From IMG/VR virus record IMGVR_UViG_3300003465_000004, positions 7,170 to 71,169 of that record: a DNA stretch of 64,000 nt, one strand, 5' to 3'. Shown here piece after piece: positions 181-46,480 of this stretch. The translations under genes and the position numbers were made by a program. Numbering within the stretch: position 1 is the stretch's first letter; every line of letters begins with the position of its first letter. Source of the DNA: a virus (Duplodnaviria > Caudoviricetes). A model generated the notes under the pieces. The model ran no database searches. It worked only from the letters and a program-made list of their open reading frames with translations, and was not told the DNA's origin.

Positions 181-837
181 ATGTTTCGTCATGATGATTC
201 CTTGACATTCCCGAAGCTTCGTCAAGTCAACTTGGCTGAGGGACGGGTCTATCAAGTGTTCGGCACAGAAATTGCGTATCCGTCCATTACACGAGTGTTG
301 GGGGCGAAACCGAAGCCACAACTAGAAGCGTGGAAGAAGAAAGTCGGGCATCAGAAAGCACAAGCGGAAGCACAGTTTGCCGCACGAAAGGGCACGACGC
401 TCCATAAGCTTGCGGAATTGTATCTCGACAATCAAGAACTTCCACCAGTGTTGCCACACGTCGCGGAACTCTGGATGAACCTTCGGCCGTGGCTCGGCCA
501 CCACGTCACGTGTGTGTATGCGCAAGAGCAGGATATCTGTTCGCATATGTTGAAAGTCGCCGGCCGGCTCGATTTGCTGGCGGACGTGGACGGTGAACTC
601 GCCGTCGTAGACATCAAGAATGCAAAGCGCATCAAGAAGCGCGAATGGGTGCGGTCTTACTTCGTTCAGGGTACGTTCTATTCACTGGCAGTCTTCGAAG
701 CCGTGGGACGTGTTGTGAAGAAGATTGTTTTGCCGATTTGTTCTCCTGAAGGATTCCAAGTCGAAGTTGCCAAACCGGCAGAATTCTTCAACGAATTGCG
801 CGCTGACATCGACTATTATTATTCGCTTGCATCTTGA
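181..837 (+). CDS. PD-(D/E)XK exonuclease of T4-like phages
   Basis: YPSITRVLG, RKGTTLH, AGRLDLL and VVDIKN motifs; lies upstream of gp33-gp59-gp32 as in T4-like cyanophages. Confidence 0.8.
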   Translation: MFRHDDSLTFPKLRQVNLAEGRVYQVFGTEIAYPSITRVLGAKPKPQLEAWKKKVGHQKAQAEAQFAARKGTTLHKLAELYLDNQELPPVLPHVAELWMNLRPWLGHHVTCVYAQEQDICSHMLKVAGRLDLLADVDGELAVVDIKNAKRIKKREWVRSYFVQGTFYSLAVFEAVGRVVKKIVLPICSPEGFQVEVAKPAEFFNELRADIDYYYSLAS

Positions 838-855
838 AAACTCTTTTGATATAAT
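827..855 (+). promoter_or_regulatory. sigma70-like promoter for the tmRNA locus
   Basis: TTGCAT-17 bp-TATAAT, in the same TTCGCTTG context as the other early promoters. Confidence 0.7.
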
Positions 856-861
856 TACTGT

Positions 862-1290
862 CATACACAGCTTCCAAGGCGAGTGTTATTGCAAATCGTT
901 GAAGTCAATCACGACACAACAAGACGGTGGGGCAGAACCACCCGGGTCCACCACAAATAATACGGGCCCGACACAGTATCGATTGGGTGTATGGGGATTG
1001 ATGGAGATTGCCGTCCAGCAACAGACGTTAAAACGAGCAAACAAGTAACTGACGAAAATCAGTTCGCAATCGCTGCCTAAGCGCAGCGGTCGGGGAAGCG
1101 GGCTCTCCCTGTCAAAGAAACCCGCAAGTCTTGCGCAGATGCCGGGGATTCCGTTGTGAGAATGGGATTCTTACCCGGAACAACATCAAACAACCGATTG
1201 GGTCGCTTCGCGCGGCGGCGTCTAATGAGCGTAGTAACGCAGACGTGGTTTTACCCAATGCTCTAGTGGATGGGAGCGAATACATCCGCA
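862..1290 (+). ncRNA. ssrA: Circularly permuted (two-piece) tmRNA; 3' end of the coding piece uncertain
   Basis: T-arm GGTGG-GGCAGAA-CCACC and CGGGTCC-A-CCA (926-953) lie upstream of the 5' acceptor strand GGGCCCG (964-970), giving a 7-bp stem with G3:U70. Tag ORF DENQFAIAA* at 1051-1080 with stop-codon hairpin CGCTGC/GCAGCG. Several candidate pseudoknots. Confidence 0.9.
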
Positions 1291-1404
1291 ACGCGTTACT
1301 TCCCCCGGCCGGACATGGTCAGTGCATCGTCACGTATTACAGCCCCCGGCCGGGTTATTTCCCTTGAGTTGCTATGATTCGTCAGGCCAACACCCACGGC
1401 AACA

Positions 1405-1629
1405 ATGAGTCTAAAAATTCATAATTCTGAAGCCTTCGCGGGGCATATCGAGCACCTTGTTGCGACAAGACATCTTTCCTATTTGGATGCGATACTTCTC
1501 TTCTGTGAAAAACGCGGTATTGAACCGGACGCGATTGCCCCGTTCATTAACGACAAGATAAAAACCGCATTGTCGCAGGAAGGACAACGACTACATCTGC
1601 TTCCGCGTATGAATGCACTTCCGCTGTAA
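1405..1629 (+). CDS. 33: Late-promoter transcription coactivator gp33
   Basis: FAGHIEHLV...SYLDAILLFCEKRGIEPDAI...KIKTALSQEGQRLHLL matches the cyanophage-type gp33 pattern; next to gp59. Confidence 0.85.
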   Translation: MSLKIHNSEAFAGHIEHLVATRHLSYLDAILLFCEKRGIEPDAIAPFINDKIKTALSQEGQRLHLLPRMNALPL

Positions 1630-1997: not shown

Positions 1998-2637
1998 GAT
2001 TTACTACGGACCCGGCAAATATGACATCCGTAAATACGGCAGTCACATCAAGACAACCCCGTTTATCGAACAGCGCGACCGGCAGTTTTACTATCGTCTC
2101 TCAACGAAGCTAAATGACGCACAAATCCATGCGCTGTTTACATCTGGGTTCTTTTTCAATCCGAAAGCGCATATTTCTGATTTCGTCACACCAGACGCGC
2201 AACAAGCCGCAATTCGGTTTGCCTCTCGCGGCGAAAACGGTGCAACGTTACTTCAACATGATTTGTATGAACTCGCGAAACGGCTCAAGGAAACGGACAC
2301 GATTGAATGGCTTTACGGAGAGTCCTCAATTATGCCACCATGCGTCGGTGAAATCATTTCCGGCGAACTTCCCTTGGACCTTGCGTGTTTGTTGCTACTG
2401 ATTCCGCAACAGGAGTATCACTATCATTGGACTGCGCATTTCGACCAACAAGATGATTTGGGACTCGGTCCGAAACCATGGATTGACCGGCTCAAAAAGG
2501 CAGACATTCTACTATCCATGCATCGGCAGTTGTGGCGTCTCACCACACATAAGCTTGCCAAGGAGTTTTGGGGAACGCTGGGCGTGATGGACCTCGCACC
2601 AAAACCCGTAACAGAGCAAGCACCAGCACTCTTTTGA
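1957..2637 (+). CDS. 59: Helicase loader gp59
   Basis: Start trimmed to MTPEQVFKHCRAYKIYY...YDIRKYG...RDRQFYYRLS; sits between gp33 and gp32. Confidence 0.8.
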   Translation: MTPEQVFKHCRAYKIYYGPGKYDIRKYGSHIKTTPFIEQRDRQFYYRLSTKLNDAQIHALFTSGFFFNPKAHISDFVTPDAQQAAIRFASRGENGATLLQHDLYELAKRLKETDTIEWLYGESSIMPPCVGEIISGELPLDLACLLLLIPQQEYHYHWTAHFDQQDDLGLGPKPWIDRLKKADILLSMHRQLWRLTTHKLAKEFWGTLGVMDLAPKPVTEQAPALF

Positions 2638-2640
2638 ACC

Positions 2641-2647
2641 CTAAATA
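2641..2647 (+). promoter_or_regulatory. Late-promoter-like CTAAATA upstream of gp32
   Basis: Same heptamer recurs before many late genes. Confidence 0.55.
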
Positions 2648-2722
2648 TGCTTATTGAGCACTTCGCTGGTATGAGACACAACATACATCAACACTCAATA
2701 CACGATACGTTTGGAGCTAACA

Positions 2723-3694
2723 ATGGCAAGTAACTTCTCTTCTCTCCGTTCCGCCCGCAAAGCCGCACTTGACAAACTCGCACAAGCCGTCAAGCAGGAA
2801 GCACAGAAAGGTTCGGCAGACGAACGTTTCTGGAAGCTGTCTGTTGACCAGAAAACTGGCGTCGGCTACGCCAAGATTCGTTTCCTTCCTGCCCCGAAGG
2901 GTGAAGAACTTCCGTGGGTGCGTCTCTTCTCGCACGGATTTCAGGGTCCAAGTGGAACCTACTATATCGAAAACTGCCCCACAACGTTGAATCTGCCGTG
3001 TCCGGCGTGCAAGGAAAACAATGTGCTGTGGAGCACTGGCGCGGAAGACAAGCGGAACATCGCCCGTGACCGCAAGCGCAAGCTGTCCTTCATTTCCAAC
3101 ATTCTAGTGTTGGAAGACCCGGCACATCCTGAGAACGTTGGAAAAGTTTTCTTGTTCAAGTATGGCAAGAAGATTCATGACAAAATCATGGAACTGATTG
3201 AACCGCAGTTCCCCGACCAGCAGCCCGCAAATCCGTTTGATTTATGGGAAGGCGCGGACTTCAAGCTGAAGGCTGCGAAGGTCGCAGGATTCCAGAATTA
3301 CGACAAGTCGTCATTCAGCGACCCGTCTGCACTGTTCGACGGCGACGATGACAAGCTTGAGTCTGTTTGGGAAAAGGAATATCAGCTTGCGGAATTCGTT
3401 GCCCCCGCAGCATTCAAGAAATTCGAAGAACTGGAAACGCGTTTGAATGCTGTGCTCAACGGCACGAACAATGCACCGAAGACTGCTGAAGCAGCTTTGC
3501 AGACAGACATGACCGACGAAGATATCGAAAAGGTCGTGGAGACTGCGAAGAAGGAAGAAGTCGCCAAGCAGCCGAAGAAGCCTGCGGCGAAGAAGGCGAC
3601 TCCGAAGCCGGAACCAAAACCGGAAGTGGCGGCGGACCCGGACGAAGATGAAATTCGCGGATTCTTTGCTGACGTGCTTGGTGACGACGAATAA
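2723..3694 (+). CDS. 32: Single-stranded DNA-binding protein gp32
   Basis: DERFWKL, GYAKIRFLPAP, YIENCPTTL, CPAC, FKYGKKI, NPFDLWEGADFKLK, NYDKSSF; acidic C-terminus. Confidence 0.97.
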   Translation: MASNFSSLRSARKAALDKLAQAVKQEAQKGSADERFWKLSVDQKTGVGYAKIRFLPAPKGEELPWVRLFSHGFQGPSGTYYIENCPTTLNLPCPACKENNVLWSTGAEDKRNIARDRKRKLSFISNILVLEDPAHPENVGKVFLFKYGKKIHDKIMELIEPQFPDQQPANPFDLWEGADFKLKAAKVAGFQNYDKSSFSDPSALFDGDDDKLESVWEKEYQLAEFVAPAAFKKFEELETRLNAVLNGTNNAPKTAEAALQTDMTDEDIEKVVETAKKEEVAKQPKKPAAKKATPKPEPKPEVAADPDEDEIRGFFADVLGDDE

Positions 3695-3728
3695 CAAAAC
3701 TGTAAGTCCCGCCGTGTGATGGACAGTC

Positions 3729-3777
3729 AACCGCTGGATTTTAGGGGAATTCCCCTAAAGTTCAGCGGTTTCGTTTT
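3729..3777 (+). terminator. Intrinsic terminator after gp32
   Basis: AACCGCTGGA...TAGGGG-AATT-CCCCTA...TTCAGCGGTT followed by TCGTTTT. Confidence 0.75.
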
Positions 3778-4014
3778 GGTGGTGTCCCGGTGGGTCAGTC
3801 TACAGGACATTCAGACGTATCCAAAGTCGCGCCAAAACGTCACCAAACGCGTTTGGTGAGCGATTTTCCCCGCATTGTCTGCGGAGTTTACACATCTTAA
3901 TCTCCGCATCCCGCTAAGTCCTTTAGAATCAATAGTTTAGCGAAATCCCGTAAATCCTTGAAAATAAAGCACTTATGGGACTTCAAATATTTTCACGAAG
4001 TTGCCACTTTTCGC

Positions 4015-44244: not shown

Positions 44245-46347
44245 ATGCCATTTCAGGTATCGCCGGGTATCAATGTATCCGAAGTAGATTTGACCGCCGG
44301 CGCGCAGCAGGTGTCTGTATCGGACGCTGGTTTTGTAGGAGCGTTCCAATGGGGCCCTGCGTTCGACGTTAAGTCAATCAGTTCAGAAGATGAACTAGTT
44401 CGGACATTTGGTAAGCCGGACGACACAAATTACGAACACTGGTTCAGCGCGTATGCATTTCTGGCATATTCGAACCTTCTTCGCGTTGTCCGTGCGCTCC
44501 CGTCGGTGGCACTAAACGCGACCGCCTCAGCAAAGACGCTACCGGGAAATGTTTCAGCGAACGGCGCAAACAACATTTGGGTGGGCGCAGGCGGCTTCGC
44601 GACGAACAACGCAATATACGCGGGTCAGCGCATTCTCATCGGAACATCTGTTTACACTGTCAGCACTGTCACCAACTCCATTTCGTTTACTACAACTGCT
44701 AATAGTGCAAACACAGTCACGGCAAACACCATTGGTGCATACGGAGTGCTCATTAAGAACGGAACGCACTATGAAGCAACCTATCCTAGCGGCACTTTGG
44801 GATACGGAGCATGGGCAGCGAAGTATGCTGGTGACCTAGGCAGCGCACTAAAAGTTAGCGTATGCACCAGCGCGGCCGCATTCTCGGCCGGAACGTTGAC
44901 AGGCGCTCTTGCTCTGACGACAGGGAGCAACACGGTTACTGGAACGGGAACGTCATTCGTCACCGAACTCATCGTTGGTGACAGCTTGACTGTAAACGGT
45001 GCAGTCATTGGTGTTGTGAGCGCAATTGCTAACGCAACGTCACTCTCACTTGCATCAGGGTCAACTGTAACCGCATCACCTGCATCGGGGCAGTGGGGTC
45101 GCAAGTGGGAATACGCATCACTTTTTGACCGTGCACCAGGCACCAGCGCATACGTCAGCCAACGTGGTGGTTCAAGCGATGAACTTCACGTCGTTGTTGT
45201 TGACCGCACAGGCGACTTCACGGGCGTGCCTGGAACCGTGCTTGAGCGGTATTCGTTCCTGTCAAAAGCATCAAATGCGAAGGACCCTAACGGCGAAAAG
45301 AACTACTACGTAACTGTGCTGAACCGCGACTCCAAGTATATCTGGTGGCTCGCCGCACCCACGTCATTGACGACCAATTGGGGTGGAGATGCAGCAAGTG
45401 CCTTCGGAGCATCTGCGCTTCCCGAAACGTCCTCTTTTGCCGGCGGCCTCGCAAATAACAGCACACTCGCTGATGCGGACCTTCAAGCAGGATGGGACCT
45501 GTATAAGAATCCGGACGCGGTCAGTATCTCACTGGCAATCTGCGGACCTGCATCTGCGACGTTGGCAAGTTACGTCATCCAGAACGTCTGCGAAGTGCGT
45601 AAGGATTCCGTAGCATTTGTTTCCCCGTCGAAGGCAAACGTCGTTAACAATGTGGGCAGCGAAGTGGCAGGTATCACCACATTCCGTAATAGCCTACCAT
45701 CAAGCAGCTACGCTTTCTGCGACAGTGGATGGAAGTATCTGTATGACAAATTCAACGACAAGTACCGTTGGGTACCTTTAAACGGTGATATTGCTGGTAT
45801 CGCGGCACGGTCAGACACACAGACCGACCCATGGTTCTCGCCGGCAGGATTCACGCGCGGAAACATCAAAAATGCTGTCAAACTAGCATGGAATCCGACC
45901 CAACTTCAACGTGACGACCTCTACAAGATTGGGGTCAACAGCGTTGTAAGTTTCCCAGGTCAGGGCGTTGTGCTCTATGGAGACAAGACCCTTTTGGATA
46001 GACCGAGTGCGTTTGACCGTATCAACGTGCGTCGTCTCTTCATCATTCTTGAAAAGACGATTGCTCGTCTCGCACGGACGCAGTTGTTTGAATTCAACGA
46101 CGAATTCACCCGCAGCCAGTTCCGCAACATCGTGGAACCGTACCTGCGCGACGTGAAGGCGCGCCGTGGAGTGCTCGATTACCGCGTAATTTGCGACGAA
46201 TCAAACAACCCGCCGGAAGTTGTGGAACAGAACAGCTTCGTCGGAGACATCTACATCAAGCCGTCGCGCAGCATCAACTTTATCCAACTCAATTTCGTCG
46301 CTGTGCGAAATGGAGTTAGCTTCCAAGAGGTAACGGGAGCCCTGTAA
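44245..46347 (+). CDS. 18: Tail sheath protein gp18
   Basis: FQVSPGINVSEVDLT, GAFQWGP, WFSPAG..RG, GDKT, AFDRINVRRLF; CTAAATA at 44170-44176. Confidence 0.98.
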   Translation: MPFQVSPGINVSEVDLTAGAQQVSVSDAGFVGAFQWGPAFDVKSISSEDELVRTFGKPDDTNYEHWFSAYAFLAYSNLLRVVRALPSVALNATASAKTLPGNVSANGANNIWVGAGGFATNNAIYAGQRILIGTSVYTVSTVTNSISFTTTANSANTVTANTIGAYGVLIKNGTHYEATYPSGTLGYGAWAAKYAGDLGSALKVSVCTSAAAFSAGTLTGALALTTGSNTVTGTGTSFVTELIVGDSLTVNGAVIGVVSAIANATSLSLASGSTVTASPASGQWGRKWEYASLFDRAPGTSAYVSQRGGSSDELHVVVVDRTGDFTGVPGTVLERYSFLSKASNAKDPNGEKNYYVTVLNRDSKYIWWLAAPTSLTTNWGGDAASAFGASALPETSSFAGGLANNSTLADADLQAGWDLYKNPDAVSISLAICGPASATLASYVIQNVCEVRKDSVAFVSPSKANVVNNVGSEVAGITTFRNSLPSSSYAFCDSGWKYLYDKFNDKYRWVPLNGDIAGIAARSDTQTDPWFSPAGFTRGNIKNAVKLAWNPTQLQRDDLYKIGVNSVVSFPGQGVVLYGDKTLLDRPSAFDRINVRRLFIILEKTIARLARTQLFEFNDEFTRSQFRNIVEPYLRDVKARRGVLDYRVICDESNNPPEVVEQNSFVGDIYIKPSRSINFIQLNFVAVRNGVSFQEVTGAL

Positions 46348-46351
46348 AGTC

Positions 46352-46480
46352 ATGATATGGCACCAACACCATATTGTTCCTAGATATATGGGCGGAACGA
46401 ACGACCCGAACAATCTAGTTCGGGGCAATCTTCCAATCTGCAAATGGGTTGAACTGCCGGCAGATGTAATAAAAATTTAG
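46352..46480 (+). pseudogene. Truncated HNH endonuclease remnant (family B)
   Basis: MIWHQHHIVPRYMGGTNDPNNLV parallels MTHRHHIIPKHMGGSDIPQNIV of 49085, then stops after 42 aa. Confidence 0.7.

Follow-up and report, generated by a model that had tools for sequence, protein, structure and literature searches.

Does the interval between an exonuclease gene and the gene of a gp33-type late-transcription coactivator in a T4-like phage encode a functional two-piece transfer-messenger RNA (tmRNA)? The stretch of DNA that raises this question (the window, 64,000 nucleotides (nt) in length) comprises bases 7170-71169 of the 71,169-bp IMG/VR virus record IMGVR_UViG_3300003465_000004, which is 39 % complete according to CheckV and which the PHROG and Pfam matches of the window proteins identify as a T4-like myovirus. 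A first-pass annotation had proposed a phage-encoded, circularly permuted two-piece tmRNA gene at positions 827-1125, and this reading holds: the general Rfam model of such RNAs (RF04321) matches above its threshold, T4-type phage genes flank the element on both sides (PHROG/Pfam), and its helices covary with those of syntenic relatives. Judged from sequence, we consider it about 85 % probable that the locus is a functional phage ssrA gene, of a lineage located at a fixed position between the exonuclease gene and the gp33-gp59-gp32 genes in T4-like aquatic and environmental myophages.

Anatomy and family assignment of the permuted gene

In the Infernal search that the first-pass annotation had proposed as a check, RF04321, the general Rfam model of circularly permuted (two-piece) tmRNAs with a gathering score of 47 bits, matched positions 891-1080 over its full length (model positions 1-213) with 86.3 bits and an E value of 3.8e-15, calculated for the 64-kb window, and it is the sole Rfam family at or above its cut-off there. 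The gene order is permuted: the 5' acceptor strand, starting at 964, comes after the T arm, the 3' acceptor strand and the CCA end, which is located at 953. All coordinates previously listed for the promoter, the tRNA-like end, the spacer, the acceptor, the tag and the hairpin were borne out on re-reading of the sequence, and the parts of the gene described in the following are located on the plus strand.

The acceptor piece begins with its strands of four P2-type inter-piece helices (891-922, namely 891-895, 904-907, 915-917 and 920-922), which are placed by the Rfam consensus structure and contain seven pairs changed on both sides with respect to the relatives. The tRNA-like 3' half (923-953), supported by sequence and the Rfam model, is composed of GAC (923-925), a T arm with a 5-bp stem GGUGG/CCACC (926-930/938-942) and the loop GGCAGAA (931-937), the acceptor 3' strand CGGGUCC (943-949), the discriminator A950 and an encoded CCA (951-953); two T-stem pairs and two acceptor-stem pairs are compensatory. 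It is followed by a gene-free segment of 10 nt, CAAAUAAUAC (954-963), which according to sequence and Rfam model is expected to be removed at maturation and which has a similar counterpart of 11 nt, CAAAACAUUAC, in the relative L280. The coding piece starts (964-1011) with the acceptor 5' strand GGGCCCG (964-970), a linker with a UCGA motif and the inter-piece helix strands 983-985, 987-989, 999-1002 and 1007-1011, as indicated by the Rfam structure and by covariation. The seven-pair acceptor stem (943-949/964-970) with the alanine determinant G3:U70, represented by G966:U947, is present as previously described, and its parts are either invariant or compensated in the relatives. When the two strands were folded without constraints, the acceptor stem, the T arm and the stop hairpin were recovered.

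The earlier interpretation of pseudoknot 1 (PK1) as a TTGC/CGTC/GCAA/GACG knot could be retained in one half. The hairpin CGUC/GACG (1012-1027; loop CAGCAACA) is modelled by Rfam, is conserved and contains one compensatory pair, whereas the UUGC/GCAA stem has no counterpart in the relatives; in the Rfam consensus structure, the UUGC of the window is the partner of the acceptor-piece 5' end. In the relatives, the hairpin loop GNCNCU pairs with AGAGNC further downstream to form the second PK1 stem, in which A:U in one sub-group is replaced by U:A in another.

The tag frame (1051-1080; sequence and Rfam model) reads GAC GAA AAU CAG UUC GCA AUC GCU GCC UAA and specifies DENQFAIAA, with the stop codon at 1078-1080. 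The tag (A)DENQFAIAA at 1051-1077 and its UAA stop, as originally read, are thus found in the sequence. From an alignment of UAACU followed by GAC in the window with UAAaU followed by GCa in the consensus, GAC is the probable resume codon, and the full tag would be (A)DENQFAIAA. The hairpin CGCUGC/GCAGCG over the stop (1071-1088; strands 1071-1076/1083-1088) could likewise be verified; it carries the UAA in its loop and has equivalents in the relatives. Further downstream, a post-tag pseudoknot (1092-1125) present in all relatives consists of stem 1, GGGGA (1092-1096)/UCUCC (1104-1108), stem 2, GCGGG (1098-1102)/CCCGC (1121-1125), and the loop CUGUCAAAGAAA. By homology, the tmRNA would end with this pseudoknot at 1125; the match of the alphaproteobacterial model (alpha_tmRNA, RF01849) ends at 1128, and in the relatives a U-run and gp33 follow directly after the pseudoknot.

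Conservation, position and detectability in related phages

A gp32 search gave 80 IMG/VR loci. Among the 12 closest, whose gp32 is 55-67 % identical, a permuted tmRNA lies 1.1-1.3 kb upstream of gp32 in eight (L192 and L194-L200); its score is 92-105 bits for RF04321 and, above the cut-off, 73-94 bits for the alphaproteobacterial model. A ninth tmRNA (79.3 bits) is located in L280, the full record behind L190, which is the closest relative by gp59. The gene is therefore present in nine of the ten close uncultured relatives that cover the position, two other contigs not reaching it. In the tenth, L191, three open reading frames (ORFs; 2167-3990) lie at the position, with no match even at E values up to 1, and this locus is an example of loss or replacement. 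All nine relatives with a tmRNA share the order exonuclease ... tmRNA-gp33-gp59-gp32, and their gp32, gp59, gp33 and exonuclease proteins are 41-67 % identical to those of the window. No tmRNA was found nearby in 24 more distant gp32 relatives (41-54 %), in some of which the exonuclease gene abuts gp33, and RF04321 detected no permuted tmRNA in phage phiM12 or in a Synechococcus phage; a synteny search via the exonuclease protein found nothing. Within this phage group, the permuted tmRNA occurs patchily but keeps its position, a distribution that matches the published statement that the ssrA gene is "common, but not defining" (PMC9004378). Scans of IMG/VR for the T-loop pattern yielded at least 120 and at least 70 contigs, none of which is related beyond the tRNA-like end, and when metagenomes were scanned for the exact T-arm sequence, the single contig obtained proved to be an ordinary tRNA cluster; these candidates were discarded. 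A metagenome contig with a tRNA cluster (L282, 24-100, minus strand) shows a sub-threshold match to the RNA of cyanophage CyVA-1 (36.8 vs 41.4 bits).

For an analysis of covariation, the window and five relatives were aligned with MAFFT from the promoter to the last pseudoknot (alignment A1), and helices were taken from the Rfam consensus supplemented by the post-tag pseudoknot; L280 was compared by direct reading, pairwise MAFFT alignments being unusable around insertions. In these six sequences, among which five are closely related, 90 % of the pair cells hold standard pairs, compared with 36-52 % when the partners are slid, and 13 pairs are changed on both sides, compared with 2.5 +/- 1.5 after shuffling of the columns, the observed value not being reached in any of 500 shuffles. 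The double changes are located in the inter-piece helices formed by 891-922 and 983-1011 (seven), the T stem (two), the acceptor stem (two), the PK1 hairpin (one) and stem 2 of the post-tag pseudoknot (one). The outermost helix, which MAFFT had misaligned, covaries as well on inspection by eye, with GCAA/UUGC in the window and AUAG/CUAU in the relatives. In the post-tag pseudoknot, 93-100 % of the cells are paired, with one double and two single compensating changes, and the stop-codon hairpin occurs in three sequence versions (CGCUGC/GCAGCG in the window, GCAGCC/GGUUGC in the relatives, UGCC/GGCA in L280). The tags of the relatives include DNQFALAA, DNQFEIAA, VNQFAYAA and GEQLAMAA, and that of the window has one additional in-frame codon (a 3-nt insertion); every tag in the group ends with Leu, Ile, Tyr or Met followed by Ala-Ala, and then a stop codon in the hairpin loop. 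Because 13 pairs are changed on both sides where 2.5 are expected, the gene is under structural selection, and the pattern of conservation is that expected of a working gene rather than of a relic.

Transcription would be driven by an early-type (sigma-70-like) promoter (827-855), for which both sequence and conservation argue. It consists, as had been claimed, of TTGCAT (827-832), a 17-nt spacer and TATAAT (850-855), and since TG at 847-848 precedes TATAAT, an extended -10 region, TGATATAAT (847-855), can be assigned in addition; the transcription start probably lies near 862-863. None of the five relatives of alignment A1 deviates in the -35-like TTG, the 17-nt spacing or TATAATTA, TGnTATAATTA being the conserved stretch, and the promoter of L280 reads TTGACA-17-TATAAT. 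A consensus sigma-70 scan of the window did not list the promoter, because TTGCAT fits TTGACA at only three of six positions.

The nine relatives resemble the window in the promoter, in non-alanine resume codons (GAU, GUG, GGC), in tags of 8-9 codons and in the same pseudoknots. Unlike the window gene, those of L192-L200 pass the alpha_tmRNA cut-off and possess one extra post-tag hairpin, whereas L280 is similar to the window in that it scores best with the betaproteobacterial model, below the cut-off of the latter. The approximately 29-nt leader and 275-nt spacer of the window (see below) are absent from all nine.

Several observations weigh against a functional two-piece tmRNA gene in the window. 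None of the clade-specific Rfam models reaches its cut-off: the betaproteobacterial model RF01850, the best-scoring of them, gives 53.4 bits (cut-off 84), the alphaproteobacterial model 47.0 bits over 823-1128 (cut-off 50) and the cyanobacterial model RF01851 19.3 bits for a partial match only (cut-off 70). The second PK1 stem, of which the window keeps two to three pairs, is degenerate in comparison with all relatives. The U-run that follows the last pseudoknot in the relatives is missing in the window, and the 3' end placed at 1125 by homology is tentative. An SmpB gene was not found in the record, which is only 39 % complete. Finally, ARAGORN in tmRNA mode, the other check proposed at the outset, called no gene in the window.

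ARAGORN 1.2.41 does not call any of seven genes tested from this sub-lineage (those of the window, L280 and five of L192-L199), and it does call the tmRNAs of the phages DLP6, Melnitz and HTVC008M. The sub-lineage, comprising the window, L280 and L192-L200, has non-alanine resume codons (GAC, GAU, GUG or GGC), tags of 8-9 codons and RF04321 scores of 79-105 bits. The ARAGORN result is a weakness of the tool and not of the gene, and taken alone it would wrongly have led to rejection of the finding. A sensitivity figure for ARAGORN on 139 viral loci (81 called) was dropped, because the layout heuristic used admits chance matches at long spacers. The published phage census of two-piece tmRNAs, which relied on ARAGORN, would undercount this sub-lineage; since RF04321 catches it, annotation pipelines should use that model.

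Function, rival explanations and the insertions specific to the window

Anatomy, conservation and genomic context were established in the present analysis, and the biochemistry is adopted by analogy to bacterial two-piece tmRNAs such as that of Caulobacter. On this analogy, the early, extended -10 promoter would drive synthesis of a single precursor RNA, RNase P would cut 5' of G964, and the 10-nt spacer would be trimmed back to the encoded CCA at 953, the two pieces being held together by the acceptor stem and the four helices between 891-922 and 983-1011. The host alanyl-tRNA synthetase would charge the RNA via G3:U70 and A73, and host SmpB would deliver the charged RNA to ribosomes stalled on broken mRNAs. 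Translation would then resume at GAC, append (A)DENQFAIAA and stop at UAA, whereby the ribosome would be freed and the tagged peptide left to host proteases recognising the hydrophobic-Ala-Ala end. The probable benefit for the phage is that ribosomes are kept available while truncated host messages fill the infected cell, which fits the presence of six tRNA genes in the phage record.

Two alternatives deny the RNA this activity. It might act as a decoy which titrates host SmpB or blocks host trans-translation, and indeed the tmRNA of phage DS6A, which has only a tRNA-like domain, resembles a molecule shown to inhibit tmRNA (PMC4131195; PMC11915505), and PK1 is weakened in the window. We regard this as very unlikely, because a decoy would need neither the tag frame nor the Ala-Ala end, the stop hairpin or the post-tag pseudoknot, all of which are conserved with compensatory changes. 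That the locus is a decaying relic or a captured host fragment without function is more improbable still: scores below all three clade-specific cut-offs and the patchy distribution, with absence from L191 and from the 24 distant gp32 relatives, would suit such a fragment, but the 13 compensatory pairs, the intact tag frame and the conserved promoter would not, and the gene is surrounded by phage genes rather than being located at the edge of a contig or at an integration site.

Further alternatives concern two segments that distinguish the window from its relatives. The first is a 5' leader of approximately 29 nt on the plus strand, absent from all relatives (alignment A1, columns 57-85, and L280), whose placement within 862-893 is ambiguous; the homology of the relatives begins approximately 6 nt after the -10 region, and no homologue of the leader was found. 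The second is an unexplained spacer of approximately 275 nt between the tmRNA and gp33 (1126-1404, plus strand), which is absent from all relatives including L280, in which the U-run and the gp33 start follow within 20-40 nt of the pseudoknot. As the first terminator-like feature, the spacer contains a weak candidate, a 9-bp GC hairpin (1304-1312/1346-1354) with UUAUUU behind it, and 22 nt of the stretch occur as an imperfect direct repeat at 1291-1312 and 1332-1353. No homologue of 1126-1404 was detected by blastn or tblastx among approximately 280 fetched loci or in cultured phages, no Rfam family matched at E values up to 10, its ORFs have no Pfam or PHROG match, and it is not repeated elsewhere in the window; a folding z-score of -0.77 gives no folding signal. 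Riboswitch families were found neither in 700-1700 at E values up to 10 nor, at gathering scores, in the whole window. In the Methylophilales phage Melnitz, a glutamine riboswitch occupies the same slot, between the last tmRNA pseudoknot and gp33, and a glutamine (glnA) riboswitch 3' of ssrA has been described as common but not defining (PMC9004378). What lies between ssrA and gp33 varies: nothing in most relatives, the glutamine riboswitch in Melnitz and the unexplained 275 nt in the window.

It is doubtful that these 275 nt are a functional RNA of an undescribed kind, be it a new gp33 riboregulator or a 3' extension providing the tmRNA with extra pseudoknots; either role is conceivable and currently unsupported. 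If the mature coding piece were longer, 1126-1404, or the part up to the hairpin 1304-1354, would add pseudoknots like PK2-PK4 of one-piece tmRNAs. As there is no terminator-like U-run between 1125 and the hairpin with UUAUUU at 1304-1360, the primary transcript probably runs through the stretch, and the extra 5' leader could serve as a partner strand. This extension is nevertheless unlikely, given that the stretch is missing in every relative, even the closest (L280), and offers no homologue for covariation, that pairing of the leader with the 3' extension was no better than in shuffled controls (p about 0.46) and was rejected, that the z-score is weak and that the alpha_tmRNA match ends at 1128. 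A separate cis-regulatory leader of gp33 in the slot of the Melnitz riboswitch (PMC9004378) would agree with the GC hairpin and U-rich tail located approximately 45 nt before the gp33 start; we consider it quite unlikely, since the sequence is a singleton that shows no Rfam family at E values up to 10, no conservation and no folding signal.

Genomic context and comparison with known tmRNA systems

The two-piece tmRNA gene is embedded in a typical T4-type neighbourhood. Its immediate upstream neighbour encodes a PD-(D/E)XK-type exonuclease (181-837, plus strand; PHROG 298, E 1e-49), homologues of which lie upstream of the tmRNA in the relatives, Melnitz and HTVC008M, and its downstream neighbour the gp33-type late-transcription coactivator (1405-1629, plus strand; Pfam PF16805, E 9e-17; PHROG 254), which is 44 % identical to the product of the ORF after the tmRNA in L197. 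Between gp33 and the gp59 loader gene (about 1957-2637) an ORF of 122 codons (1629-1997) is found, without a match in Pfam or PHROG and with 36 % identity over 63 residues to the ORF at the same place in L190; gp32 is located at 2711-3694. The T4-type matches in the window comprise a gp32-type single-stranded DNA-binding protein, gp5/gp6-type baseplate proteins, sheath, portal, scaffold, a gp23-type capsid protein, the gp59 loader and the gp33 coactivator. Megablast and blastn gave no DNA match to the locus in cultured phages, and the capsid protein is less than 60 % identical to its best matches, which are from Stenotrophomonas phage DLP6, Methylophilales phage Melnitz, pelagimyophages, Sinorhizobium phage phiM12 and cyanomyophages. 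The 7 kb of the record preceding the window contain the six tRNA genes (Val-GAC, Val-TAC, Trp-CCA, Asp-GTC, Gln-TTG and Gln-CTG; L377, 376-2278), with two HNH homing-endonuclease genes among and after them (L377, 1384-1803 and 2850-3362). The tRNA-Asp(GTC) and tRNA-Gln(CTG) decode the tag codons GAC and CAG, possibly by coincidence.

The first-pass annotation had associated the T-loop with Alphaproteobacteria and the gene with a hint at the host lineage. The former remark is right: among bacterial species representatives, the carriers of GGCAGAA are nearly all Alphaproteobacteria; the signature occurs in 94 such representatives (Rickettsiales, Holosporales, Rhizobiaceae, Rhodobacterales and others), with a permuted order in 62 of the 80 examined. 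The latter did not hold up, as a syntenic gene is carried both by phages of the alphaproteobacterium SAR11 and by phages of OM43 (Methylophilales). In a scan of bacterial species representatives, the signature preceding the resume codon combined with the tag end had zero matches, and the similarity of bacterial loci to the gene is confined to the tRNA-like end. Because one locus is shared by phages with capsid proteins less than 60 % identical and with hosts of different classes, the tmRNA type should not be used for guessing the host; the alpha-type T-loop is a trait of the phage lineage and a weak host clue, and it is this lineage that the tmRNA type reports rather than the host. In metagenome-assembled genomes of Saccharibacteria (L298, L314, L330, L356 and L357), the signature GGGGCAGAACC...TCCACCA was observed with a complementary 5' strand 326-387 nt upstream (by a heuristic). 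As this corresponds to a one-piece order, the T-loop form is probably not confined to permuted genes.

A separate permuted tmRNA is present in the Stenotrophomonas phage DLP6 (KU682439.2; L274), where it lies unannotated at 102838-103059 in a tRNA cluster, scores 136.8 bits and has the canonical T-loop UUCGAUU and the tag ANDDSFAPMAIAA. Stenotrophomonas is a gammaproteobacterium and thus belongs to a group using one-piece tmRNA.

What is of modest interest in the window gene is a sub-lineage invisible to ARAGORN, a stable locus and an unexplained insert; the understanding of trans-translation is unchanged by it. The earlier remark that phage tmRNAs are uncommon is overstated for this phage group: the gene has already been described, together with its early promoter and its location upstream of gp33 (PMC9004378), and the tmRNA database holds 79 phage sequences (PMC11915505). 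The nearest described counterpart is the two-piece tmRNA of Melnitz, which has an early promoter and lies upstream of gp33 (Buchholz et al. 2022, PMC9004378). In the Melnitz genome (MZ577097.1), the annotated tmRNA (45984-46436) scores 113 bits with RF04321, and the gene order is PD-(D/E)XK nuclease, two small ORFs, tmRNA, gp33, gp59 ... gp32. Both phages are T4-like myophages with a permuted gene, a sigma-70-type early promoter whose -35 element is 17 nt from the -10 element, the order nuclease, tmRNA, gp33, gp59, gp32, a GGCAGNA T-loop, a CAACAGAAAC-type loop in the post-tag pseudoknot and an Ala-Ala tag end. They differ in the spacer (approximately 150 nt in Melnitz, 10 nt in the window), the resume codon (alanine GCA vs GAC), the tag, which in Melnitz is longer (ANDNYVPVDYALAA), the scores (113 vs 86 bits), the ARAGORN result (called vs missed) and the slot after the tmRNA (a glutamine riboswitch vs no known riboswitch family), and their capsid proteins are less than 60 % identical. 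With its early-type promoter, the nuclease gene upstream and gp33 directly downstream, the window locus fits the Melnitz/pelagimyophage type of ssrA locus. Pelagibacter phage HTVC008M (KC465899.1) contains a further permuted tmRNA (145161-145370; 90.6 bits), which is unannotated and overlaps the end of a coding sequence for a "hypothetical protein", in the order exonuclease, ORF, tmRNA, two ORFs, gp33. It shares the exonuclease, tmRNA, gp33 locus with the window, but differs by the T-loop UGCAAUA, the tag ANFNEYALAA, a low G+C content and its detection by ARAGORN.

Among bacterial systems, the alphaproteobacterial genes (RF01849), as exemplified by the Caulobacter tmRNA, whose precursor is cleaved to give two base-paired pieces (Keiler et al. 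2000, PMC16621; cited in PMC9004378), have in common with the window gene the permuted order, a GGCAG(U/A)A T-loop and a single post-tag pseudoknot, whereas neither the acceptor sequence of the window nor its pre-resume and tag-end signature occurs in any bacterial species representative. With the betaproteobacterial two-piece tmRNA (RF01850; Sharkady and Williams 2004, PMC516066; cited in PMC9004378), the promoter columns and an NDE..FA.AA-like tag can be aligned, but the beta consensus has the canonical T-loop UUCGAUU. The tmRNAs of mycobacteriophages (Bxz1 group) are phage-borne as well, but they are one-piece RNAs with the standard gene order, and the DS6A form consists only of a tRNA-like domain without a tag frame (PMC4131195). 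The window gene, with its minimal, gene-free spacer, is a well-supported, divergent addition to the phage two-piece tmRNAs, for which an early promoter and a location upstream of gp33 had been published before (PMC9004378).

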